The position numbers and the translations under genes are program-made. Shown here piece by piece: positions 1,980 through 54,996 of a DNA stretch of 64,000 nt. The stretch covers positions 51,665 through 115,664 of the forward strand of contig JAEHCO010000004.1 in assembly GCA_020697715.1 (NCBI GenBank). Direction: 5' to 3'. The DNA comes from Methanobacteriota archaeon (GTDB taxonomy: Archaea; Thermoplasmatota; Thermoplasmata; SG8-5; JAGLSY01). Under the pieces are notes generated by a model that had not been told where the DNA came from, did not search any database, and saw only the letters and a program-made list of their open reading frames with translations. Position 1 is the stretch's first letter; each line of letters starts with the position of its first letter.

Positions 1980-3896
1980 TCATTGAAACGCCTCCGGTTC
2001 ATCTTTAATGTCTTTATAATTGAATACAGGCCCCTCTTTACAGACATATATTCCATTTATCTGGCAGTGACCGCACTTGCCTACACCACATTTCATGCGC
2101 CTTTCCAGAGAGACAATGATATTCTCCTCCGGCATGCCCATGTTAAGCAGATCGCGGTTAACGAACCTGTACATGATCGGTGGGCCAACTACCACAGCGA
2201 TGGTGTTCAATGGATCGAAGGTCACCATAGGCATGATGGTGGTGATAACACCTACCTGTCCATCCCATGACTCGCCCTCTGCACAGGTATCAACGGTCCT
2301 GTGCATTTCGACACCAGGTGTATTCTCCCATTGGGCGATCTCATCCTTGAAGAGAAGCTCACTGGGATCCTTGCAGCCATAGAGGATCATGACCTTGCCA
2401 TAATCAGCACGGTTGTTCAGCACATACTTGATAAGGGAGCGCATTGGAACTATGCCCAATCCACCACCAATGAACAAAATATTCTTTCCCTTCATGTCTT
2501 CCGTGTCAAAGCCAGTACCAAATGGGCCTCTGATCCCGATCTTGTCTCCCTCACTTAGAGAATGAAGCTTATTGGTCAGGTCTCCCACATTCCTCACGAT
2601 GATCTGGAATGTGTTCCCTCCTGGTGGAGAAGATACTGAAATTGGTGCTTCGCCCACACCGTATATGGATACTTCGACGAACTGTCCAGGCACATGACCA
2701 AGGGGCTGGCCGTCATCCAATCCGATCTCGAAGAAGGTCTCGGTCTTGGTGAGTTTCATCATCCGCCTTATGGTCGCGGTCCTTGGTATGTACAATGAAT
2801 CACTGGCAACTATTCCAAGGTCAGATTTCTCTGGCACATGACCCACATTTGCATCAGGTATCGTGTCCATCGTCGCTTCGGCCAGTTTATTGATCAGATT
2901 GACCGGGTCTGCAATGTCAGGAATACATGCACTTGAACATCTTCCACAACCAACACAGGCAACGAAGCCCATGGCATCTGGAAGGTACTTACCCTTCCTG
3001 TTAATCCTGTGGCGATATCTCTCTACGATATCCTCTCTGAATATCTCTCCAGGCGCGACCTTTGTGAAGTCACGGAGCAGGCAGCCATCCCATGTTCTGG
3101 TTCTGACACCAGTGTTGAGATCTAATCCGACCTCGTCATTGACATCATAGCAGAAACATGTTGGACAAACGAGAGTGCAGGAGCCGCATGCCAGACACTG
3201 ATCCGACATCTCCTTCCATACCGAGCTCATGTAATTGTTCGATAGAAGAGAATGCCATGCTTTGGGGCCGACCTTCAAGCCTCTTGTAGCTCTGTCGATC
3301 GCCTCCTGTCGCTTGTTCTTGGCAGCCTCTATCTCCTGAGGCTGTGCATCTCGAGATGTTGCCCTCTGAAGGAGCTCTGCACCTTCAGGAGTTCCCGGAA
3401 GGATAGCATAAAGCACACCCAGGTCTGTAATCATCAGATCGAAGTGCAATTCAGGGGTGCCAGCATCTTTCATCAGGTCCCCATAGAAGGCCTTTTCAGA
3501 GGCCTTCGCGGGCATCACACCTATCAGAAGAGAATTTTTTCTTTTCTGCAAATATATGTCATCAACATTGGTGTCGAAGAAGTATTTGTCCATCTGCTGG
3601 ATCGCTATCAGGTCATATGGATGAACTCCCACAATGACCTTCTTCGTGTCCATAGCTGGAGCAGTGGCCTTCCCAGTCGATATATCGAAATGCATCATTG
3701 TCTCGTACTGAGGCAGATAATACTTCTTGGGTGGAAGAATGGTGACATCATAGTCCAAGCGCAGCTCTGTTGCTGAGTCTAGCGGTCCAAATACGAACTT
3801 ATCTCCTTTGGCCTTCACGCCCTCAACATCCAAAGATTCATCCTGGATCAGGGCATTTATAAAGGCATCGAAATCTTGTTTTGATATTATTTTCAT
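1980..3896 (-). CDS. Fused sulfhydrogenase beta (4Fe-4S, HydB/AsrA-like) and gamma (FAD/NAD(P), HydG/AsrB-like) subunit
   Basis: N-half has CLACGSCTLVCPTCFC and CVGCGRCSSAC. C-half has PGQFV, EAPIS, RGPFG, GGGLG, VVGPP and MKCGVGKCGHC. Confidence 0.9.
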   Translation of the reverse strand: MKIISKQDFDAFINALIQDESLDVEGVKAKGDKFVFGPLDSATELRLDYDVTILPPKKYYLPQYETMMHFDISTGKATAPAMDTKKVIVGVHPYDLIAIQQMDKYFFDTNVDDIYLQKRKNSLLIGVMPAKASEKAFYGDLMKDAGTPELHFDLMITDLGVLYAILPGTPEGAELLQRATSRDAQPQEIEAAKNKRQEAIDRATRGLKVGPKAWHSLLSNNYMSSVWKEMSDQCLACGSCTLVCPTCFCYDVNDEVGLDLNTGVRTRTWDGCLLRDFTKVAPGEIFREDIVERYRHRINRKGKYLPDAMGFVACVGCGRCSSACIPDIADPVNLINKLAEATMDTIPDANVGHVPEKSDLGIVASDSLYIPRTATIRRMMKLTKTETFFEIGLDDGQPLGHVPGQFVEVSIYGVGEAPISVSSPPGGNTFQIIVRNVGDLTNKLHSLSEGDKIGIRGPFGTGFDTEDMKGKNILFIGGGLGIVPMRSLIKYVLNNRADYGKVMILYGCKDPSELLFKDEIAQWENTPGVEMHRTVDTCAEGESWDGQVGVITTIMPMVTFDPLNTIAVVVGPPIMYRFVNRDLLNMGMPEENIIVSLERRMKCGVGKCGHCQINGIYVCKEGPVFNYKDIKDEPEAFQ

Positions 3897-3915: not shown

Positions 3916-4647
3916 TCAATTAATGACCTTTAGTGCTTCGAACCCATCTGGTGTGTAGCGAAGTTCGAAGGGGTCTGTGGTGTGGTTCACACCTCTCATC
4001 TTGATTATCTGGATCTGTCTCTGGCTCTTGGTGGGATTTATCTGTTCCATTGATAATTTGATTATACCATCAGCAAGGAAATCTATGTCATGCTTGCTGA
4101 ATTTTGGAGAATCCTGGCTCATCTCGGTTATCAAGAATGTTGTTACACCCAGCTTCTTCAGCCATTTGAAGAAGTGGAATAGCTCATCCCTTGGATCATC
4201 CATCTTGAACATCATTTCCACCACGGGTAGAGAATCTATGACCAGAAGGTCAAAACCCATAGCATTCTTCAATGTCTCCAATTGTCTCTTGAAGGTCTCC
4301 ATGTTCACTTTGCCAGTCGGGTCCTCAGGATGTATCCCAGGATCCTGGCTCAGCTTCAACCACTGCTCTCTTGTCGTGGTAAGGTCATAGAGATTCAATC
4401 GCCCCTCCACATTATCGCCCATACCCAGCTTGGTCAGGTGGTACATGAAATTGTCCCGATCCTGCTCAAGTGTTAGATAAAGAGCCTTGGTCTCACCGTC
4501 CTGTGCATTGGCCATCAAAGTACGGTAGGCCAATGTGGACTTCATGGTTCCAGGTGTTCCTGCCAGAAGGACAATGTGTTTATCAGGAATACCTCCGTCC
4601 ATCTTATCATCCAAACCATTAATGTTTAATTTATAGGTTTTTTCCAT
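3916..4647 (-). CDS. KaiC/RAD55-family single-domain ATPase
   Basis: GIP..HIVLLAGTPGTMKST (Walker A variant), LLVIDS (Walker B), ADGII and IIKMRG motifs. Confidence 0.85.
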   Translation of the reverse strand: MEKTYKLNINGLDDKMDGGIPDKHIVLLAGTPGTMKSTLAYRTLMANAQDGETKALYLTLEQDRDNFMYHLTKLGMGDNVEGRLNLYDLTTTREQWLKLSQDPGIHPEDPTGKVNMETFKRQLETLKNAMGFDLLVIDSLPVVEMMFKMDDPRDELFHFFKWLKKLGVTTFLITEMSQDSPKFSKHDIDFLADGIIKLSMEQINPTKSQRQIQIIKMRGVNHTTDPFELRYTPDGFEALKVIN

Positions 4648-15698: not shown

Positions 15699-18404
15699 TT
15701 ATTCTCGATTAAGTATATCAAAGAATTCACTGATTATGGATTGTGCAGAGTGATAAGCAGTATCTGGCTCAAGTTTTCGATTTGTTTTACCATTTTGTTC
15801 AAGAAATGCCACACTCAATGCCTGATCAGAGAGGAAATAATACAATGGCTTTGATTGAATATTTATGCGATTACTTCGTAATTCATTGTAAAACAAAGTA
15901 ATAACATCCGCCTCCATCCTCTTAATCGATATCTTGTTCTTTCCAAAAAAATTAAATTGTTTCTCAGATAATTTTAATTCATCCGATATACAAGTAACAG
16001 CTATTTTAAGAGCCTCCCAAGATGAATTAATCCGATGCTCAGGAGAATTTATTTTATTAGAAGCATCAATTAGATTGGATTCCATCAATAAAGGGCCAGA
16101 AATTTGACCCTCTTCTAATTCTATTTCCACTTCTTTTTTTTCGTCTGTTTTAAGTTTTTTTCCAGGAGGTCTTATCGGATTATGAGAGAAGCCATTGAGA
16201 AATTGTTTTGAATTTATGCTATCATATTCTAAGCCCTCTAAAAAAGATCTTACGTATTTTTTTAATCTGTATTTAGTTACATGAGTATTTTCAAATGAAC
16301 CCATAGTAATTCTTTCATCAATCCTTTCAAATATTATAGCTAGAGACCCAGAATACATTGAAAAAGGAATTTCCATGTCAATAAATTTTAAATTAAAACG
16401 ACCGCCTTTTTTAGCCTGAATTCTTTGAATAGAATTAATTAATATTTCAAAGTAGGGAGATATGTCTTCTTTTTTCCTATCAACATCCCTTTGAAAATCA
16501 TAAATAAGTTGCATCCCTTTGGCTAAGTCAGGGCTAATTTTTGATATTTTAATTGCTGCTCTCGCCCTTGCTGTTTTCAACCCCATCGGAAAAATATTTG
16601 AAACAAAGACCTCATCAATTTTTTTTACTTTACTTTCAGCAGCATGGCAAAATATGTGTTCGGCTTTGCCTAAGATTTCACCAGGTAAGCCCATACTTAC
16701 TTCACGAATATTATCGCTAGCATCTGTAGTTATTAATTCATCGGGATCTTTCCCATTAGCCTCAATTCGTTTTGAAATTAGATCCCATGTTTCTTTATTG
16801 CTAAATGGTTCAAGTTTCATCCCCAATTCAGGCCTTAAGTACCTATAAGGTTCTTCAGATAACATTTCAAGCCAATCAATAGGAATGCAGAGAAGAACCA
16901 TCCAACGTTCCTGAGCATTGTCTGTAAAGTTTTGAAGCAATTTTAAAAAATCTTTAATTATTTTTCTTTCATCTTCATCCTTGTATTTTAATCTATCAAG
17001 ATTATCCAAGAATATTACAACATTCTCGTCCTTAACATTTTCAAAAATTGTATTAAATTCTTTTTTCTCTAAAGATGTTTCTGAGTCACCGGATAGTGAT
17101 TTGGCTATTTTTTTTGCCTCAGTAATTACAAAATTATATAAATCTAATCCACTTAGAATTGGTCTAATTGTGTTTAATGTTTCTATATAAAATATTTTGC
17201 ATCCATTTGATTCTAAAACATCTTTCATAACTCGATGGAGAGTGGTTTTACCAGCTCTTCTTTCTGCAATTATTAGTTTTAACCCACCACTTTGGCTTTG
17301 TGCTACAGATAGAGTTCTAGAAATTATTGAATTCATAGAATCTGTTTTAATAAGTAGTTCTGAACCTTCACCAAGTATACGATCTGACCATGGGTTCCCA
17401 TTGAAACCCCAATAAGACATCCAATTGTCTCTATTTGAAACATCTATGACTTTATCTCTTATTTTTGTATCATCTACATCAACCATTAACTCTAATACAT
17501 CAGGAGGAGGTTTCTGTAAATTCTCCTGCAGTTCTGACGTAATATTATTGTTATCAAAACTAATAACAATTCCATTTTTTTGCAATGGGATTTTTATTAG
17601 GTCAATTTCAGAAGAAATTTTGTTAATAATCATAGCCTTTAATTTTGATGGCACACCTCCAGGCAAATTAGGAATGCGAAGACCCAGTGTAATTATCCCC
17701 TCATTAATATTTAAATATTTAGTATAATAATGAATATACCAATGTAATTTTGAATCTGGAGGGATAGCTATCAAGTCTAATTTGTTGATTATTACTCTCT
17801 CCCACGTTCGATCCAATTCATCCCCAAGACGCAATAAACATAATATTAAACCAACTCTAATCTTACCTCCTGAAATTTTTTTTATCAATGTTAAATCATT
17901 ATCTGTGACAGGCCCACTGTGTTTTTCACATATCCAAGCTATTTCTTTAGCAATATCTGCAAAAACAGTCTTGTTTAAATCAATAGTTAAAGGATTTTCT
18001 CCATTAATCAATCCAGCCGAAAGTTTGATTAAATTCGCTGAACTGATTGCGTGTTTTTTTCTTACTTCAAGAGGTTTCTCTGCTAATTCTGCAATGATTT
18101 GCCTTTTATTTACTACTCCCGAATCTTTTATGTTGAACATCATTCCAATATCATGAAGCAAGCATGAAGATGCTAAACATAGTATTTCATAATCAGAAAG
18201 TTCTTCAAACGTATCCATCTTTGATTCTAATATTTTATCAACGATTGAAATTACTCGCAATGAATGACCAATTGAATGGTCTGTGAATATCTCACTAGAT
18301 GTTCCTAATATATTTCTTAATCGAACTTCAAGATTATCTAATTCGGTTTTTTTATCTTTTTCAAGATCATTAAGAAAATTAGCCATTACCATACATTCAC
18401 CCAC
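15699..18404 (-). CDS. HD-CE-like phosphohydrolase fused to a P-loop (AAA+/STAND-like) ATPase with helical C-terminus; candidate defence gene
   Basis: TDHSIGHSLRV, LLHDIGM, LRLGDELD and HWYIH; then WGFNGNPW, AERRAGKTT (Walker A variant) and IFLDNLD (Walker B). Visibly much more AT-rich than its neighbours. Confidence 0.7.
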   Translation of the reverse strand: MGECMVMANFLNDLEKDKKTELDNLEVRLRNILGTSSEIFTDHSIGHSLRVISIVDKILESKMDTFEELSDYEILCLASSCLLHDIGMMFNIKDSGVVNKRQIIAELAEKPLEVRKKHAISSANLIKLSAGLINGENPLTIDLNKTVFADIAKEIAWICEKHSGPVTDNDLTLIKKISGGKIRVGLILCLLRLGDELDRTWERVIINKLDLIAIPPDSKLHWYIHYYTKYLNINEGIITLGLRIPNLPGGVPSKLKAMIINKISSEIDLIKIPLQKNGIVISFDNNNITSELQENLQKPPPDVLELMVDVDDTKIRDKVIDVSNRDNWMSYWGFNGNPWSDRILGEGSELLIKTDSMNSIISRTLSVAQSQSGGLKLIIAERRAGKTTLHRVMKDVLESNGCKIFYIETLNTIRPILSGLDLYNFVITEAKKIAKSLSGDSETSLEKKEFNTIFENVKDENVVIFLDNLDRLKYKDEDERKIIKDFLKLLQNFTDNAQERWMVLLCIPIDWLEMLSEEPYRYLRPELGMKLEPFSNKETWDLISKRIEANGKDPDELITTDASDNIREVSMGLPGEILGKAEHIFCHAAESKVKKIDEVFVSNIFPMGLKTARARAAIKISKISPDLAKGMQLIYDFQRDVDRKKEDISPYFEILINSIQRIQAKKGGRFNLKFIDMEIPFSMYSGSLAIIFERIDERITMGSFENTHVTKYRLKKYVRSFLEGLEYDSINSKQFLNGFSHNPIRPPGKKLKTDEKKEVEIELEEGQISGPLLMESNLIDASNKINSPEHRINSSWEALKIAVTCISDELKLSEKQFNFFGKNKISIKRMEADVITLFYNELRSNRINIQSKPLYYFLSDQALSVAFLEQNGKTNRKLEPDTAYHSAQSIISEFFDILNRE

Positions 18405-18546
18405 TTCTCCCAGAGATATAAAGCTTTAAGCTTGATAAGTTTAACGGGAACATAATTCAAAATATTATTTTGTATTATCTTTAGTTCAGCATATTATTAT
18501 TATTTTGGATAGAATCACACAACAACCCTCGCACTTACAAAGCCCT

Positions 18547-19215
18547 GTACCAATTCCTTTTTATATTACACAAAAGCACGCACCAGCGTTTTTTTCTTTT
18601 AAAGTTTTCTGCGCTGGTTCGGGCTCATCGAATCAAAACCAAGGTTTTGACAAAATATATGCGCTCGGGAAATATAGCCAGCTCATCTAAAAAAGAAAAA
18701 AATACAGTTAAGAATCAAACCCATTATATGTGTTTGATAAAATAATTGCGTAGGATCAATAGGTAAAAGTCGCAATTAAAAATAAGAAACTCGCCCTCGC
18801 CTGCTCGAAAACCAAGTCGAATACAAAACACCGCACCAGGAAGTTTTTCTTTAACCTCGCTGTGCTCTTAGTTCGAATCGCTATGCTTCTCGAACTAATT
18901 ATTTGCGAAGTTTACGCAAATAAGGGCTCACCTTCCAAAGAAAAAGTTCCATTCAAAAGAAACTCAGGTGAGCCTGCTCGCTCGTCATATGTTGATAATT
19001 GCTCTGAATACAAAACACCGTACCAATTCCTTTTTATATTACACAAAATCGCGCACCAGCGTTTTTTTCTTTCAGGGTTTTCTGCGCTGGTTCGGGCTCA
19101 AAAAGAAAAAAATGCCGTTAAATAAGAAACTCGCCCTCGCCTGCTCGAAAACCAAGTCGAATACAAAACACCGTACCAATTCCTTTATATATTACACAAA
19201 AGCGCGTACCAATTC
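18547..19215 (+). repeat. Three tandem units of a structured non-coding repeat element
   Basis: 53-bp identical repeat at 18781-18833 and 19121-19173. 43-bp repeat with 1 mismatch at 19006-19048 and 19159-19201. Recurrent CACCAG, T-tract, GGCTCA, A-tract, AAGAAACTC and GCCTGCTCG blocks. Confidence 0.85.
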
Positions 19216-19276
19216 AGTTATATACGATTTCTCAAAATATACTCCATTTGAGAAGAATTGGAGGAAGTGGAGCAAA

Positions 19277-19615
19277 ATGATGATCAAGATCTACATAAGT
19301 ACGCATAGTGAAGGACGATTGAACATGCCATCTAATGACCACACAAGGGCCGCACCTCACGGCGGCATGGCCGCGTCGTCGGGCATCCTGGTGGACGATC
19401 CAAATTACATCAATATGGAATGCAAAAAAGCAATAGAGGCAGTCAAGCTCTTTGCAGAAGAGCATGGATTCAATTATAGAATATACGATGTTCGAAATGA
19501 CTGGCCCGCAATGCGAGCCAGGATAGAAGGAATAAAAGTATTGCCCACCACGGTCTTTGGAAAGAAGAAGATCGAAGGAATTCCTTCTTTTGATGAAATG
19601 GCCGCGTGCTTGTAG
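19277..19615 (+). CDS. Small thioredoxin/glutaredoxin-like fold protein lacking CxxC
   Basis: IYDV...LPTTVFG..KIEGIPS resembles a Grx C-terminal half. The listed start at 18968 runs through the repeats and is probably spurious. Confidence 0.5.
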   Translation: MMIKIYISTHSEGRLNMPSNDHTRAAPHGGMAASSGILVDDPNYINMECKKAIEAVKLFAEEHGFNYRIYDVRNDWPAMRARIEGIKVLPTTVFGKKKIEGIPSFDEMAACL

Positions 19616-19707
19616 GTAGCTCGTAGGTGGAGGGAATTTGATATTTCATAAGGACAATGTAGAAATACCATACCCACGGTTTAAGGCGCAGACCGGATGA
19701 GAGATTA

Positions 19708-20583
19708 ATGAAACTGCATAATTTAAAAGCGATCATAATCATTGCAAACATAATAATTGCAAGTATCAGTATAACCAGCATATACACTGTCGCTTCTGGA
19801 AATTTCAATGTCATATTACCAGAACAGGATGATATTGATTGGGAGGTTCGCGATGGTAAGCTGGTCTTCACCACCAATGTCACCATACAGAACAATGGCT
19901 TTTATTCCATAAAGGGATTGAAGATCAATGTGGACCTTCTTGAGAATTCAACTGGCTTCAAATTGATCGAATACCAGCACACAGTGGATATCATCCCCAT
20001 GAGAACAGACCATATTGAACAATTGGAGATACCATTGGACCTTGATCGTTATCAACAATTGTATGCGGAGTTGGATAATTTCATACCTGAGGATTGGTTG
20101 GATGAAGTGGACAAGTTCATGTTCAATGACACAGCCCTGAGCCTTATCATAAGTGTCGAGGCATATTATACAATGAAATTAGTGCGCTTTAATGCGGATT
20201 ACACATTTGATTTCCTCTGGCCAGCAACAATACAGATCTATGATATTGATACATCAAATATCACTCAATATAATAATGGCCCTGGAATTGATCTTGAGCT
20301 TCCTTTCACACTGCACACCTCACAATGGATAACAGGGGATATCAGGGTAGACACACACCTTCAGAACAGCACGATGAATTTCGCTAATTCAATCACCATC
20401 ATACCTCTGGGACAGAATTATTCCGGGAATTTAAGTATTCACTTGAACCCACAAGAGATGGCCAATTTAAAGATAAATACCCAGGCATTGTATTTGGTGG
20501 TTATGATATCGACATCCGACCTGGGGATCATCTATAGAGATATGGTAGAGTTCGCAGCAGATATAGAACTGGAGCAACCATGA
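19708..20583 (+). CDS. Hypothetical N-terminally anchored extracellular beta-rich protein
   Basis: Hydrophobic N-terminus, LEA/Ig-like FTTNVTIQNNG pattern and NxS/T sequons. Confidence 0.6.
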   Translation: MKLHNLKAIIIIANIIIASISITSIYTVASGNFNVILPEQDDIDWEVRDGKLVFTTNVTIQNNGFYSIKGLKINVDLLENSTGFKLIEYQHTVDIIPMRTDHIEQLEIPLDLDRYQQLYAELDNFIPEDWLDEVDKFMFNDTALSLIISVEAYYTMKLVRFNADYTFDFLWPATIQIYDIDTSNITQYNNGPGIDLELPFTLHTSQWITGDIRVDTHLQNSTMNFANSITIIPLGQNYSGNLSIHLNPQEMANLKINTQALYLVVMISTSDLGIIYRDMVEFAADIELEQP

Positions 20584-21125
20584 TGGCAGAAGGAACTGGA
20601 GAACATAATAAAGATATCCTAGGCGAGGAGACCCAGGACGAGGATATCCAGAACGTGGACATCCAAAACAGGGATGTCCCAAGAGGAGATGACATATCAT
20701 CTCAGAATAATGCGAAGAGCCATTATGTATATCCAGTCATCAATTTGCTCATATACGCCATTCTTCCATTCATTGTCATTACATTTATCAGATCGAACTA
20801 TACAGACCTCGATCAGGCCAGATTGAACAATGTGATAATGTGGACTTCGATAATTGGAACGACCATTGCGATAATATCGTATTTCGAGACATATTATCCG
20901 CCAGGGCATAAAGGTCGCCTGGTATCAGGAATTATCAGCACTGGCATGATGTATATCTGGATATACGGATTATTTGGTGGCACAACGATCAGATCCACTT
21001 ATGGAGAATATGAATTCTTTATCGACATCAGTCGCATGCTGGCTCTGATAATTTTTGGAATTAGTTTGAAATTAATATACAGGATCATTGAATTCATCAC
21101 TTGCAGGAAAACACAGGCGCAGTGA
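20580..21125 (+). CDS. Hypothetical membrane protein (about 4 TM) with acidic N-terminal microrepeat
   Basis: Hydrophobic segments; DEDIQN/VDIQN repeat; ATGA overlap with the upstream gene. Confidence 0.65.
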   Translation: MMAEGTGEHNKDILGEETQDEDIQNVDIQNRDVPRGDDISSQNNAKSHYVYPVINLLIYAILPFIVITFIRSNYTDLDQARLNNVIMWTSIIGTTIAIISYFETYYPPGHKGRLVSGIISTGMMYIWIYGLFGGTTIRSTYGEYEFFIDISRMLALIIFGISLKLIYRIIEFITCRKTQAQ

Positions 21126-21545
21126 ATGATTATTGAGGTCGTCCCAAAACTTCCATATACTTCTCCTTCCATTATCCTCCCAATGTCACCCACACTTATC
21201 GAAGCATTCCAGCCCTTATGCACAGATGTTCAGAAAGAGGTTCAGAAGGTTCTTAAAAGTATCCTGCTCGGGCCCATGATAAGCGGATACCTGCCGCAGA
21301 AATGGATCTTTGCAACATCTCAGGAAGTAGTTACATTTTGCCTTGATATAACAGGCGAGGCCAGTGTCATCGAGGGCACTGTGGATGACTCGGATGTGCT
21401 CATCAAGATCAGCCATGATCCTCTTTTACAGATACTGGAAAGCATGGACAAACCAGAAGAGAAGCCAGATATTCTGGATATTAGTTTTCAGACCAGAAAA
21501 GGAGAGGCCGCTTTCGGATATATGCGGAAGAGATTTGGATTATGA
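21126..21545 (+). CDS. Hypothetical protein, possibly SCP2-like fold
   Basis: Pattern of short beta strands followed by DVLIKIS; start uncertain (could be 21183). Confidence 0.45.
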   Translation: MIIEVVPKLPYTSPSIILPMSPTLIEAFQPLCTDVQKEVQKVLKSILLGPMISGYLPQKWIFATSQEVVTFCLDITGEASVIEGTVDDSDVLIKISHDPLLQILESMDKPEEKPDILDISFQTRKGEAAFGYMRKRFGL

Positions 21546-21711
21546 GACAAATACTCAATAAATTCATTGAATGGATATTTATTAGTTCTTCAAATATCTA
21601 TTAGATGCAGATTATAGACAATTAGAAAAAATATCCCGTATGTTAATGTTAACAATCACACGCATTCAATTGTCAAAAACTTATTTATAATATCAGACCT
21701 ATTTTAGGATA

Positions 21712-22476
21712 ATGGCTGATAAGATCAAATTGAATGTGGAACTTAAGTTGATCATGGGATTTTTGTTCTTTTTCATAATATCGGGAATGGTTCCAGGTAT
21801 AGTATCGGTTTTTATCAGCTTATTCGACATTGACATTGAAACTGCCAATCTCATGGTCCTGATTATTACATTCTCAGTCTCTGTTATCTTGTGCGTTATT
21901 ATTGGTCTGTATCTCATAAAATGGATAGCCGAGCCTATCAAGAAGCTTATCACGGCCATGGAAAAGATGTTGGAAGGTGACATGACCGTAGATCCTATCG
22001 TGACAACTGGTGATGAGATCGAGGCTTTCTCCATATCTCTTTTAAGAATGAAATCCAGTTTGATGATAGCCACCCAGATGCTTGGACCTTATGAGGTCGA
22101 GGAGCAGGAGATCCCAGAAGTGAAGGGATTTTCCGTAGGGGAGAAGATGATATTCAGCCTCATCCTGTTCCTTGTATTGAACCCGATCATCACCATTATC
22201 CCCGTAATACTTTCACTGGATCTCCTTTTGGGAGCATCTATTGCTTCATTGTTATTCTCAGTGATCATGCTATTGATATTCGTCACATACCTGAACAGAT
22301 CCATAATGGAGCCATTTATCGCACTGACAGAAGCTGCTGACAAGATAAGCAAGGGGGATTTTGGAACCAGTATAGAGATCAAGAGCTCCGGCGACATAGG
22401 AAGATTGGAACTGAACTTCAAGAGGATATCAGATAGAGTGGAAAGAGCCATAAAGGAGATGGAAAATGGTCAATGA
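21712..22476 (+). CDS. Membrane protein with two tandem (2TM + HAMP) modules and no output domain
   Basis: EPIKKLITAMEKMLEGD...DEIEAF and EPFIALTEAADKISKGDF...DIGRL HAMP patterns. Confidence 0.8.
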   Translation: MADKIKLNVELKLIMGFLFFFIISGMVPGIVSVFISLFDIDIETANLMVLIITFSVSVILCVIIGLYLIKWIAEPIKKLITAMEKMLEGDMTVDPIVTTGDEIEAFSISLLRMKSSLMIATQMLGPYEVEEQEIPEVKGFSVGEKMIFSLILFLVLNPIITIIPVILSLDLLLGASIASLLFSVIMLLIFVTYLNRSIMEPFIALTEAADKISKGDFGTSIEIKSSGDIGRLELNFKRISDRVERAIKEMENGQ

Positions 22477-52969: not shown

Positions 52970-53071
52970 TGCAAAATAGTAGTGAATGTTATTAATTCCA
53001 TTATAATTATAGAAAATCAAAAGAGCAACACTGCTCATCAAATAAGCAGTGTCGCACACGTTTCCAGAGTC

Positions 53072-53220
53072 CTACATGCCCCAGAATTTATCCTCGCGTT
53101 TTTTTCTTTTTACTCTCACTGCGCTGGCCAGGCTCACAAAAGAAAAAAATGCCGTTAAATAAGAAAACTCGCCTGGCATGCTCGTTCGAGGAGTCTTATC
53201 TACATGCCCCAGAATTTATC
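53072..53220 (+). mobile_element. Solo copy (53093-53199) of the 18.5-19.2 kb structured element, flanked by 21-bp direct repeats of the infB 3' end
   Basis: CTACATGCCCCAGAATTTATC at 53072-53092 and 53200-53220. The interior shares AAAAGAAAAAAATGCCGTTAAATAAGAAA with 19101-19129. Confidence 0.7.
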
Positions 53221-54996
53221 TTCTTTTCTCTTTATCGTGCATACCTGTTCCATCACATCCAGCTCATCCGGATTGAGGTCAGAACCTTTCCTCAATTCTT
53301 TGCAATGGGATGACAGGATATCAACGTACAGAACATCATCCTCATCTATCTGGCGACCGCAAGTTGCACCATCTATCGCTACAGCCACCTCGGCACCAGC
53401 TATGGCTTCCTTCAGAGATTCATCCCCATCTCTGATGCTCTTGATCTTACCGATAACACGTCCATCCTCTCTCATGAGGCGCTGGCCGATCCTTATCCGG
53501 CCAGCAAGTATCCTTACGCCGACTATCGCGGGCTTGCTCAATCGGAACAGACAATCTGGCAATAGTAGTATCTTGCCAGGATAGACCATGTCCAGACGAC
53601 TTTCAGCATCCAGCTCTCGTTTTCTAATTTCCAGCCATTCATCATATTCCTCTATCAATCGATAAACGATATCAGCCTGGATGAATTTTAGATCGGAATT
53701 GAGAAGCTCTTCCTTCGCATCTGGAAGAAGATTGACATTGAAACCGAACATCACACGCTTCAATGGGTCATTCGTAGCTGCGGCCTCTATGATATCCCTT
53801 CGGGAAACATCTCCAACCGCGGCCTTCTTTATCGGTATGCTGGCATTCTTCGCTTCGTATGCCATAGCCTCCAAGGAGCCAATGGCATCCGCCTTTATCA
53901 TGATGCCATCCTCCACAGTCTCGATGGCCAGTTGTGAGCGGAGGCTTATCTCCTCTATCAGATCATCTAAGGTATCCTTGCTCGCAACCCGTAGTGGTCC
54001 GCCAGCTATGACCCCTGTGATATCCTGGGCCACTAGTTTGACACCTGCCGCGGCAGTTACACAATCCTGAGGGTTGAACCTCTCGCGCGGATCACGTATC
54101 TCATCCAGTGCCTTTGGCTTCAGGATAGCCTTGGCCTTGGTGACCATCGGCTTGCCGGATGTACCCAATACAAGAGTGTCGCCCTTTTTGATCTGGCCTT
54201 TGTAAAGGATAACATCCATTGTTGGTCCGAGACCTTTCTCCTCCTTGATCTCCAGTATAGTACCCTCGCCAAGGCCAGTCTCGTCAGTCCATAGCTTTTT
54301 CTCAAGGAATCTCTGGGCCAGTCCGACCAACATAAGCAGGATGTCTGGAACCCCTTCGCCAGTCTTGGCACTCATCGGGATAAGTGCCAGATTTTTGGAG
54401 AAGTCCTCGATCTTATCATAACGATCTGCTGAGAATCCTTTATCATAAAGATGCCCGACAATGTTATAGAACCTCGTCTCCAGCAGAGCCTTGACATCCT
54501 TGTTCTGCTTCTTCAATGAGACAAGGAATGGCTCATTCTCATGATTGCGCCATCCAGGCATTAGATCTATCTTATTGAGGGCGATTATGAAAGGTGTTTT
54601 CAATTGCTTGAGGATATTTATGGATTCGATGGTCTGGGGCTTCAGTCCCTCATTGATATCAATGACCAGAACAGCCAGATCGGCCAGTGATCCGCCTCTT
54701 GACCTCAATGTTGTGAAAGAATGGTGACCTGGGGTGTCGATGAAAAGCAAGCCAGGAACACTGAACTTCTTTTCCCCGATAAGTGGCTTGCATATCTTGT
54801 ACACGACATCTATGGGAACCTCTGTGGCCCCGATATGCTGGGTAATGGCTCCAGCCTCTCGCGATACTACAGTGGAACCTCGGATATAATCCAGCAAGCT
54901 GGTCTTACCATGATCTACATGACCCAGCACACTGACTATGGGCTGGCGGATGATACCGCAGTCTACAATTTCTGCTTCAGATTTGGGCTTTGCCAT
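53200..54996 (-). CDS. infB: Translation initiation factor aIF5B (IF-2)
   Basis: GHVDHGKTS, DTPGH, NKID and SAKTGEG motifs; ends KFWGM. Confidence 0.97.
   Translation of the reverse strand: MAKPKSEAEIVDCGIIRQPIVSVLGHVDHGKTSLLDYIRGSTVVSREAGAITQHIGATEVPIDVVYKICKPLIGEKKFSVPGLLFIDTPGHHSFTTLRSRGGSLADLAVLVIDINEGLKPQTIESINILKQLKTPFIIALNKIDLMPGWRNHENEPFLVSLKKQNKDVKALLETRFYNIVGHLYDKGFSADRYDKIEDFSKNLALIPMSAKTGEGVPDILLMLVGLAQRFLEKKLWTDETGLGEGTILEIKEEKGLGPTMDVILYKGQIKKGDTLVLGTSGKPMVTKAKAILKPKALDEIRDPRERFNPQDCVTAAAGVKLVAQDITGVIAGGPLRVASKDTLDDLIEEISLRSQLAIETVEDGIMIKADAIGSLEAMAYEAKNASIPIKKAAVGDVSRRDIIEAAATNDPLKRVMFGFNVNLLPDAKEELLNSDLKFIQADIVYRLIEEYDEWLEIRKRELDAESRLDMVYPGKILLLPDCLFRLSKPAIVGVRILAGRIRIGQRLMREDGRVIGKIKSIRDGDESLKEAIAGAEVAVAIDGATCGRQIDEDDVLYVDILSSHCKELRKGSDLNPDELDVMEQVCTIKRKEDKFWGM

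Follow-up and report, generated by a model that had tools for sequence, protein, structure and literature searches.

Repeat elements with three covarying, interleaved helices at gene ends of Thermoplasmata archaea, and their possible mobility

What kind of element repeats itself in tandem in front of an archaeal gene, with each copy set off from the next by a piece of host sequence? We asked this of a 64,000-nucleotide (nt) stretch of a Thermoplasmata archaeon genome (contig JAEHCO010000004.1; here called the window), where at 18533 to 19211 three related plus-strand units alternate with copies of a host segment of 48 to 53 nt. An initial annotation, made from the letters alone, had read the units as a structured noncoding family of RNA or single-stranded DNA (ssDNA). 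We find that they belong to a family of repeat elements that is specific to Thermoplasmata archaea and has not been described before, and that the three helices of the element, P1, P2 and P3, covary strongly. We regard it as an even call whether the element is a nonautonomous, structure-dependent mobile repeat of about 100 nt that is able to carry a captured gene end, by a mechanism that we infer.

Units in the window and their common fold

The window holds four copies, three in tandem (U1, U2 and U3, 18586 to 19158) and a fourth, U53, at 53096 to 53195, where the initial annotation had noticed the complementary pair GCCAGGC/GCCTGGC. A covariance model of the family, run with its filters off, returned these same four copies only in the 64 kb. 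The copies and the host sequences beside them are as follows.

18533 to 18585, plus strand: host segment S0, a diverged copy of a promoter-region segment of 48 to 53 nt, with 85% identity to the reference copy
18586 to 18818, plus strand: unit U1, long form
18819 to 18838, plus strand: partial host segment in the gap between U1 and U2, made up of the segment's first 15 nt (18819 to 18833) plus CACCA
18839 to 19005, plus strand: unit U2, with a type-B P1; its core scores 42.7 bits with the covariance model
19006 to 19058, plus strand: host segment S1, the reference copy of the 53-nt direct repeat
19059 to 19158, plus strand: unit U3, the canonical short form; covariance model 102 bits, E 4e-26
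19159 to 19211, plus strand: host segment S2, 94% to the reference copy
53066 to 53095, plus strand: left direct repeat, with the displaced last 8 codons of aIF5B, the stop codon and the first bases of the 3' flank
53096 to 53195, plus strand: solitary copy U53; covariance model 81.5 bits, E 2.4e-20
53190 to 53223, plus strand: right direct repeat, the functional 3' end of aIF5B, with its stop codon at 53200 to 53202 on the minus strand

The sequence GAATACAAAACACCG is present three times exactly, at 18819, 19006 and 19159. It does occur after each unit, as had been stated, but it is the first 15 nt of the duplicated host segment of 48 to 53 nt and not a part of the element. The string AAGAAACTC-N9-GCCTGCTCG occurs three times against 0 expected, and the inverted repeats formed by the T tract and the A tract are present with the sequences first quoted. 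A TATA-like box, TTTTTATATT, lies in host segment S0 about 25 nt upstream of U1, and S2 runs on into the promoter/5' region of the downstream thioredoxin-like gene (ATG at 19277). The duplicated segment presumably acts as a promoter, with a functional TATA-like box.

From 5' to 3', the element consists of X, a T tract, P1-5', TGCGCT, P2-5', the linker CTCC, an A tract that continues into X', an A-rich loop ending in AAGAAAACTC, P2-3', (C/A)TGCTC and P1-3'. X is 3 to 7 nt long and subfamily specific (GCG, GAGTA, CCAC, CCGCC, AAG or GAAGC), the T tract has the form T5-7 C T3-5, and the A tract has the form A3-5 G A5-7. The strands of P1 and P2 vary in sequence and meet at the junctions TGCGCT and (C/A)TGCTC. 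P1 comes in two types (here and below, L001 to L105 are loci from other assemblies used in comparisons). Type A is a plain helix of 7 to 9 bp, for example GATTTTC/GAAAATC, GGCCTTC/GAAGGCC, GAAAGCCC/GGGCTTTC, CAAAATTC/GAATTTTG or GTAAAAATC/GATTTTTAC. In type B, a variable outer helix and a GC/GC step are separated by a conserved TC/TC internal loop; the step is changed to AC/GT in U53, L038 and L045.

The element is about 100 nt long and reaches 150 to 240 nt with optional hairpin modules. These occupy three sites: after TGYGCT (U2, L015), in the gap between P2-5' and the A tract (U1 plus at least six copies) and in the A-rich loop (U1, L051). The modules are conserved between genomes, with compensatory changes, and the small hairpins of U1 and U2 read as they were first described. 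The 5' part of U1 runs X (GCG), T tract, P1-5' (GTTTTC), TGCGCTGG, P2-5', module 1 and A tract, and its 3' part runs module 2, AAGAAACTC, P2-3', CTGCTCG and P1-3' (GAAAAC). Module 1 comprises the hairpins TCAAAAC/GTTTTGA and ATGCGC../..GCTCAT and is conserved in other genomes (L015, L062, L072, L087, L091 and L025); module 2 comprises ATCAAAC/GTTTGAT and AATTGCG/CGCAATT. Two hairpins, TTAGTTCGA/TCGAACTAA and TTATTTGCG/CGCAAATAA, are inserted in U2 after CTGTGCTC, with a homologous insert in L015; P2 of this unit is GGCTCACC/GGTGAGCC, and its 3' tail reaches 19005. U3 pairs 19059-19072 with 19102-19115 as P3, GGTTTTC with GAAAACC as P1, and GGTTCGGGC with GCCCTCGCC as P2. U53 has a type-B P1 with the AC/GT pair, and its P2 is GGCCAGGC/GCCTGGC(A).

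We determined covariation in a MAFFT alignment of 58 short-form copies that was not fitted to any structure, using 500 shuffles and partner-slide controls. Standard pairs filled 81.6% of the cells, versus 68.6 ± 0.7% after shuffling, and 252 cells were changed on both sides, versus 91 ± 9; none of the 500 shuffles reached either observed value. Sliding the partners by 1 to 3 columns gave pairing of 44 to 62%. The covariation proposed in the initial annotation is far above both kinds of control. Pairs changed on both sides make up 9 of 14 in P3 (alignment columns 8-21 with 52-65), 7 of 9 in P2 (39-47 with 84-92) and 6 of 7 in P1 (26-32 with 98-108). In P2, 27 copies have GC and 25 have AU at one position, and two further positions divide CG/GC at 30/26 and 26/22 copies; the outer pair of P3 is GC in 17 and CG in 15. 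Copy by copy, the lengths of the T runs around the single C match the lengths of the A runs around the single G.

P3 crosses P1 and P2, which are nested, and this supports an interleaved, pseudoknot-type arrangement. The crossing topology first proposed has therefore held up, with interleaved helices that each covary, as in an H-type pseudoknot. Under nested folding, the minimum-energy structure was either P3 or P1 plus P2, varying by copy. The family has crossing helices, a long U-A helix and an A-rich strand of suitable length in common with H-type RNA pseudoknots and with U-A triple helices of the ENE (expression and nuclear retention element) type. Unlike an ENE, it has no U-rich internal loop that clamps the A tail, and its complementary strand pairs equally well. 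A U/A triple helix would be a topological possibility only.

Three covarying helices would also be expected of a functional plus-strand structured RNA. Such a molecule would be a pseudoknotted cis-acting element (a terminator or insulator, a stability or exonuclease-blocking knot, or a translational leader) that was duplicated with gene ends and kept for regulating the neighbor gene. The A-rich loop of 18 nt could cross the minor groove of the 14-bp U-A helix in an H-type-like manner. To ask which strand folds, we repeated the pairing count on the reverse-complement alignment and obtained 81.6% on the plus strand and 81.1% on the minus strand. For P3, the plus strand gives the higher figure (82.6% versus 77.3%) owing to a G-T pair that several subfamilies have beside the T tract, a result in favor of a plus-strand RNA. 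P1 and P2 pair better on the minus strand, which speaks against it: P2 (80.4% plus, 83.7% minus) does so because a C-A mismatch in 17 copies becomes T-G, and the P1 figure (78.2% plus, 82.8% minus) is confounded by the type-B register. Pairing is equally good on both strands, and therefore a plus-strand RNA, for which the initial annotation had argued from a G-T pair, is not established by these counts. More speculatively, P3 and P1/P2 might form on opposite DNA strands. Ribozyme-like activity, another early suggestion, found no backing, as there was no match to a known ribozyme family and no conserved cleavage core was seen.

T runs are present on both strands of the element (T7CT4, GATTTTC and GAGTTTTCTTATTT, and T7CT4 on the complement). 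Oligo-T runs terminate archaeal transcription. The element might thus act as an archaeal terminator in both directions, which would account for the tolerance of insertions just past stop codons and tRNA 3' ends. The T7CT4 at the very 5' end should likewise terminate transcription coming from upstream, a further difficulty for a plus-strand RNA.

Distribution, insertion sites and displaced gene ends

We scanned a collection of species-representative genomes with one exact pattern from the conserved 3' half of the element and obtained 94 matching stretches. About 70 of them lie in Thermoplasmata/Methanomassiliicoccales assemblies, in at least 15 genomes and with up to about 18 matches in a single draft genome; the rest are scattered bacterial chance matches without the remaining parts of the element. 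With the covariance model, the count was 94 matches in 73 sources, among them additional copies and local clusters. The initial annotation had allowed that it would fall if no further copies existed, and large numbers of them do. Searches of viral contigs gave three chance pattern matches only, none of which was confirmed by the covariance model.

At gathering thresholds, Rfam (release 15) returned no match in the whole window. A permissive Rfam scan of 18450 to 19280 returned only chance matches to microRNAs and long noncoding RNAs (E 2 to 7), and Rfam scans of related loci returned a tRNA only. These scans agree with the early view that the structured family cannot be assigned to a known class. 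We did not find a description of the family in literature searches, and a comparative genomics paper on the Methanomassiliicoccales does not mention it. The window array was found in none of the sequencing runs searched, and runs with related loci share the repeat only. Comparison with L051:4100-4750 showed many family variants in marine-sediment and cold-seep metagenomes, and some of these variants skip the optional modules (joints skipping 91 to 146 nt). One metagenomic library labeled RNA-Seq has contigs with family sequences, which would favor a plus-strand RNA, but the library is unstranded, the family sequences are seen in contigs at a depth similar to that in DNA runs, and it may contain DNA and tells nothing about expression.

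Elements are found at the promoters, 5' ends and 3' ends of genes and at tRNA ends, and they point either way relative to the neighbor genes. This range of sites and orientations argues against a regulatory plus-strand RNA, for which the duplicated TATA-like box at promoter distance before each window unit would be a favorable sign.

The presence of the element at a given site is lineage specific. U53 lies directly downstream of aIF5B, in antisense to it, and the same 3' site has no element in the relatives L102 to L105 (three loci of an 87% relative and one locus of an 84% relative). In these four empty loci, the C-terminal ...EDK(F/L)WGM* is followed directly by unrelated spacer. A metagenome scan for close aIF5B relatives gave only genes of 45 to 58% identity, all without the element. 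L102 and L105 have a conserved promoter-proximal sequence in common. There, a complete element stands in L102 between ..CACATCA and GTAAATTATAAG, and the empty site in L105 reads ..CATATCA followed by AGTAAATTATAAAT. This comparison shows that insertion adds X through the last base of P1-3' and duplicates 0 to 1 bp. The 5' end of the element is thus the base of P3 (X and the T tract paired with the A tract and X'), and its 3' end is the base of P1. Together with the lineage-specific presence at the aIF5B site, the filled and empty sites directly support the small mobile element that the initial annotation had listed among its options. Variable presence in related genomes at otherwise conserved loci is difficult to reconcile with a regulatory plus-strand RNA, as is the nesting of copies in one another and in a sister repeat described below.

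Elements also form clusters, with three at the 5' end of a hypF-like gene in L060, two at the 3' end of one gene in L051 and three in the window, and in L077 and L081, from two genomes, two element subfamilies have one and the same insertion nucleotide in the same gene. A T-rich tract lies just past the right flanking repeat in only about 5 of 26 cases, and we therefore dropped the idea of a T-rich target preference. Among the left flanks, C-rich or CTGCTC-like ends are weakly preferred. In L020, L090, L054 and L094, X' and the 3' end of the neighboring tRNA have complementary sequences. Since X is part of the element in the direct-repeat subfamilies, we read this complementarity as an ordinary extension of P3 and set aside a guide-like role for X', although X' may play some part in target choice. 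The tRNA genes directly upstream of the elements at L020:5766-5880(-) and L090:4590-4690 were missed by ARAGORN and have introns, one after the anticodon loop and one in the D region. In both loci, the T tract of the element begins at the tRNA discriminator base, and the element may replace the tRNA's own terminator.

The most informative feature of the family is the flanking host duplications, which the initial annotation had missed. Left and right flanks were aligned locally, and for 34 of 70 copies the best alignment exceeded the 95th percentile of mismatched-flank controls; direct repeats of host sequence of 16 to 95 bp flank roughly half of the copies. The end of the left repeat always falls 2 to 8 nt before the T tract, the right repeat starts 0 to 58 nt after TGCTCG, and repeat identity usually peaks next to the 5' junction of the element and decays leftwards. 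The gene could be read in 15 cases, and in all 15 the intact copy runs on from the right repeat, on the 3' side of the element. This set includes the 5' ends of sense genes (mvhD-like genes in L029, L031, L063 [twice], L080 and L048, a hypF-like gene in L060, and membrane protein genes in L056 and L070) and the 3' ends of antisense genes (aIF5B of the window, TopoVI-A-like genes in L077 and L081, the L051 gene, a tsr3-like gene in L074 and a tRNA gene in L092).

We counted the differences between copies by hand from the sequences. In the window, the displaced and the functional aIF5B ends are distinguished by one synonymous codon change (GAG versus GAA) and by an indel of 4 nt that follows the stop codon. 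The two copies in L081 differ at 14 nucleotides in 13 codons, and all of these changes are synonymous. At the same insertion nucleotide in L077, which represents another genome and another element subfamily, 13 of 15 differences are synonymous, and the four copies from the two loci are roughly equidistant (14 to 21 differences in 83 nt). L051 has three copies of the last 19 to 29 codons with frame and stop codon kept (TAA, TAA and TGA), and L060 has three copies of the first 16 codons with about 8 synonymous changes and 1 nonsynonymous change each. Protein-level divergence in L074 and L056 is confined to poorly conserved terminal residues, as in orthologues. Nested serial repeats are found in L051, L060 and the window. 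By these counts, the displaced copies appear unlike decaying pseudogene fragments, and both copies were probably functional gene ends in different lineages until recently.

Host direct repeats that abut both ends of a small, noncoding, multicopy element in about half of its copies could also be the mark of a cut-or-copy DNA transposon derivative, similar to a miniature inverted-repeat transposable element (MITE), whose long and variable target-site duplications later decayed. Some repeats are identical (L012, L019), as fresh duplications would be. However, the element has no terminal inverted repeats; its ends (X plus T tract, and the P1-3' strand) are not complementary, and its inverted repeats are internal and interleaved. 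The flanking repeats are polar and range from 16 to 95 bp with no fixed length, and the one clean comparison of a filled with an empty site gives a duplication of 0 to 1 bp. Under symmetric duplication, about half of the intact genes should be on the 3' side and not 15 of 15, and the displaced copies are almost without nonsynonymous change even near synonymous saturation (L077/L081). We consider a MITE-like origin improbable. A diversity-generating retroelement was also rejected: the differences in L081 and L077 are synonymous third-position changes of all kinds and are not adenine specific, the targets are housekeeping genes, and no reverse transcriptase was seen.

A proposed mechanism and comparison with known systems

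Simple insertions show no duplication, and duplications occur only where a gene end lies on the 3' side, with copies that resemble diverged orthologous ends. A gene end carried by the element is therefore the most economical reading. In the mechanism that we propose, a recombinase or transposase supplied in trans would recognize the folded single strand, with the invariant TGCGCT/TGCTC internal loop between P1 and P2 as the putative protein site. The enzyme would join the fixed 5' end of the element, which would be the recombination point, to targets. The element would leave with a variable stretch of its own 3' flank, the captured gene end, and if the unit then integrates within the homologous gene in a different cell, this captured end would act as a surrogate end, so that the gene would not be killed. 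The resulting order would be host end, element, carried end and gene body. Displaced ends would pile up through repeated events, as in L051, L060 and the array of the window. In that array promoter DNA is the duplicated segment, and each of its copies keeps a TATA-like box about 25 nt upstream of the next unit. Candidate enzymes would be a transposase of the rolling-circle or single-strand kind, overrunning a hairpin terminator, and a site-specific recombinase that acts on a folded site. A carried gene end would account for the long imperfect repeats, the constant polarity, the nearly synonymous-only divergence and the serial arrays.

By behavior, the family stands closest to miniature mobile elements that depend on structure and to integrative elements carrying surrogate gene ends. 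Phage 21 and e14 integrate into icd and carry a surrogate end of their target gene. The dusA-type islands are integrative elements of the same surrogate-gene-end type (PMC4482086). The family resembles these systems in that the insert would bring a replacement end and the gene stays intact (polarity 15/15; L081, L077, L051, L060, L074 and U53). As in those systems, the displaced end persists as an imperfect direct repeat whose differences are mainly synonymous, identity peaks by the crossover, and tandem integrations stack displaced ends. Unlike phage 21, e14 and the dusA islands, which are kilobases long and encode their own tyrosine integrase, the inserts of the family are about 100 to 250 nt long, noncoding, present in dozens of different genes per genome and built on a covarying folded core.

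The absence of target duplication (0 to 1 bp) and ends at the bases of P3 and P1 also correspond to what is seen in single-strand transposons, which have subterminal-hairpin ends. The rolling-circle and single-strand transposons IS91/ISCR, Helitrons and IS200/IS605, their miniature derivatives, and repetitive extragenic palindromes and bacterial interspersed mosaic elements (REP/BIME) with REP-associated tyrosine transposases (RAYT) are like the family in making no target duplication and having a fixed 5' end. They are also like it in having a hairpin-defined 3' end that is open to overrun, by which 3'-flanking host DNA would be carried along. Further likenesses are imperfect hairpins whose conserved mismatches serve in recognition, and a high copy number both in intergenic DNA and near terminators. 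Unlike single-strand transposons, the family has no HUH transposase linked to it (none in the window) and no conserved target tetranucleotide that we could see, its captured flank ends beside its own homologue and not at unrelated sites, and its interleaved three-helix fold has no counterpart there.

A structured repeat in tandem with short unique segments (window, L012, L051 and L060), whose structure is kept while its stem sequences vary, could instead be a known recombination site, either integron attC-like cassettes or an array like clustered regularly interspaced short palindromic repeats (CRISPR), with the host segments as cargo or spacers. Like attC cassettes, the unit is mostly a structured, single-strand-folded recombination site with little or no cargo, occurs in tandem arrays and would depend on an enzyme in trans. 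However, the core sites R''(RYYYAAC)/R'(GTTRRRY) are not conserved across copies: U3 and U53 have GTTAAAT, and other copies read CAGTAAA, GGGGGAA, GGAAA and others there. The family has no conserved R/L boxes, integron platform or nearby IntI, and no integron integrase, other recombinase or cas genes are encoded in the 64-kb window. Its copies are scattered over dozens of loci and many contigs and are not collected on one platform, its helices are interleaved and do not form one imperfect hairpin, its targets are gene ends chromosome-wide, and its hosts are archaeal. CRISPR arrays consist of short (23 to 50 nt) identical repeats and unique spacers of similar size, usually with cas genes, whereas the present units are 100 to 240 nt long and mutually different, and their "spacers" match the adjacent host gene. 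An attC-like or CRISPR-like identity is largely refuted, and we give it very little credence.

Several points weigh against the carried-end mechanism. The comparison of filled and empty sites is one pair of loci. We saw no circular or excised intermediate. The mobilizing enzyme was not found: the 64-kb window has no gene for a transposase, integrase or reverse transcriptase, and no integrase lies near the inspected element copies. We know of no direct precedent in archaea for a transferable unit of 150 to 300 bp. The pairing counts are balanced, and the folding strand may be either one and the folded molecule DNA or RNA. Some long repeats are identical or nearly so (61/61 in L012 and 71/74 in L019), which fits duplication in situ equally well as re-integration within a clone. 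Finally, a clade of elements located after codon 17 to 20 of mvhD-like genes (L029, L031, L063 at two sites, L080, L048 and L005) is conserved across four genomes and three paralogues. This clade has no stop codons in the frame of an upstream open reading frame (ORF) that reads through the whole element, starts at the displaced ATG and ends on the start of the main gene. That start is CTG in L031 and L063a, which suggests translational coupling through the element. The mvhD-associated clade looks like a domesticated leader rather than a recent insertion, and its stop-free frame and two CTG starts favor a plus-strand RNA. We consider a functional plus-strand RNA unlikely as an explanation for the family.

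A GC-rich sister family, the genomic surroundings and implications

The AT-rich family of the window has a sister family, a GC-rich hairpin of about 55 nt with 13 copies in 10 loci, none of them in the window. Its order is GCCCRCCCCA, N12, CCCCCCACC, P1, CTGCGCTGG, P2, CCCNTCCCCC (a C-rich loop), P2', CCTGCTCG and P1'. P1 and P2 of the sister family covary, C-rich boxes lie upstream, and the family has no Rfam match. Its copies are located as follows.

L034, 4009 to 4085
L019, 817 to 893, minus strand
L054, 1938 to 2016, minus strand
L036, 1806 to 1882, minus strand
L036, 2898 to 2974, minus strand
L010, L001, L015, L052, L073 and L090: copies also present

The CTGCGCTGG/CCTGCTCG internal loop is common to the two families and invariant in the AT-rich family, and we therefore take it as the best candidate for a protein-recognition site. 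AT-type copies are inserted in the sister hairpin directly after CTGCGCTG (L053, L073 and L036), and the extra hairpins of U2 and L015 stand at the corresponding point. The complement of the sister family is G-rich, which suggests G-quadruplex potential. A tRNA-like origin had been considered for weak 77-nt model matches of 60 to 70% GC and was rejected when these proved to be the separate GC-rich hairpin family.

Inverted pairs of elements are found in L006 (1132-1237, plus, and 3293-3398, minus) and L086 (3870-3972, plus, and 4432-4534, minus). These pairs bracket stretches of 2 kb and 0.46 kb, and the 2-kb stretch includes a nitroreductase-like ORF. Inspection of both pairs for cargo showed no transposase-like ORF.

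The proteins encoded in the window include aIF5B, an archaeal-type ATPase, HypF, hydrogenase subunits and FEN-1. The closest recorded aIF5B proteins have 87% and 84% identity and are labeled Thermoplasmata archaeon, and the Methanomassiliicoccus luminyensis protein has 62%. An exact-protein look-up gave no record for three window proteins, and a scan of the window for tRNA and transfer-messenger RNA genes found none. The array borders a low-GC island (16000 to 22000), with a GC content of 0.32 to 0.40 compared to about 0.46 elsewhere. The island encodes, at 15699 to 18404 on the minus strand, a 901-amino-acid protein that combines an HD-CE domain at its N terminus with an AAA/archaeal ATPase domain, and on the other side of the array are three ORFs without a Pfam match (19708 to 21545). 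The island looks like horizontally acquired DNA, possibly related to defense.

Two further repeats lie close to the copies in the window. At 19174 to 19240, TACCAATTC recurs at 19207, past the last host segment, and is followed by TTATATAC, a stretch that resembles the start of a 33-nt TACCAATTCC...TATATTAC unit. This recurrence could stem from an older duplication or mark where an element has been lost. Just past the displaced aIF5B end, at 53041 to 53065, there is an inverted repeat, GCAGTGTCGC ... GCAACACTGC (gene strand, GCGACACTGCTTATTTGATGAGCAGTGTTGC), which may be the original 3' hairpin of the aIF5B gene.

A broader interpretation, which we offer tentatively and think rather less than likely, is that the family represents a new kind of mobile DNA in which the interleaved three-helix fold is the substrate of the whole recombination machinery and the captured end is both a homing address and a spare part that keeps the target gene intact. 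The GC-rich sister hairpin would then be a minimal form of the same recombination site. If this is true, the element would move between related archaeal genomes and stack in arrays. The lack of target duplication, the constant polarity and the surrogate ends point to a mobilization mechanism that has not been described for such small elements, and the mobilizing enzyme, once found, could add a new structure-guided recombinase. The covariation-backed fold is a defined target for structural biology, as ssDNA or RNA.

Archaeal mobile DNA is poorly charted, and the Thermoplasmata of sediments and cold seeps are known almost only from metagenomes. In these genomes the copies are numerous enough that assemblies break and annotations gain false short ORFs and duplicated gene ends, and the covariance model is immediately useful. 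For the archaea that carry it, the family would be a natural system for swapping the 5' ends of genes (promoter, ribosome-binding site and first codons) and their 3' ends between lineages.

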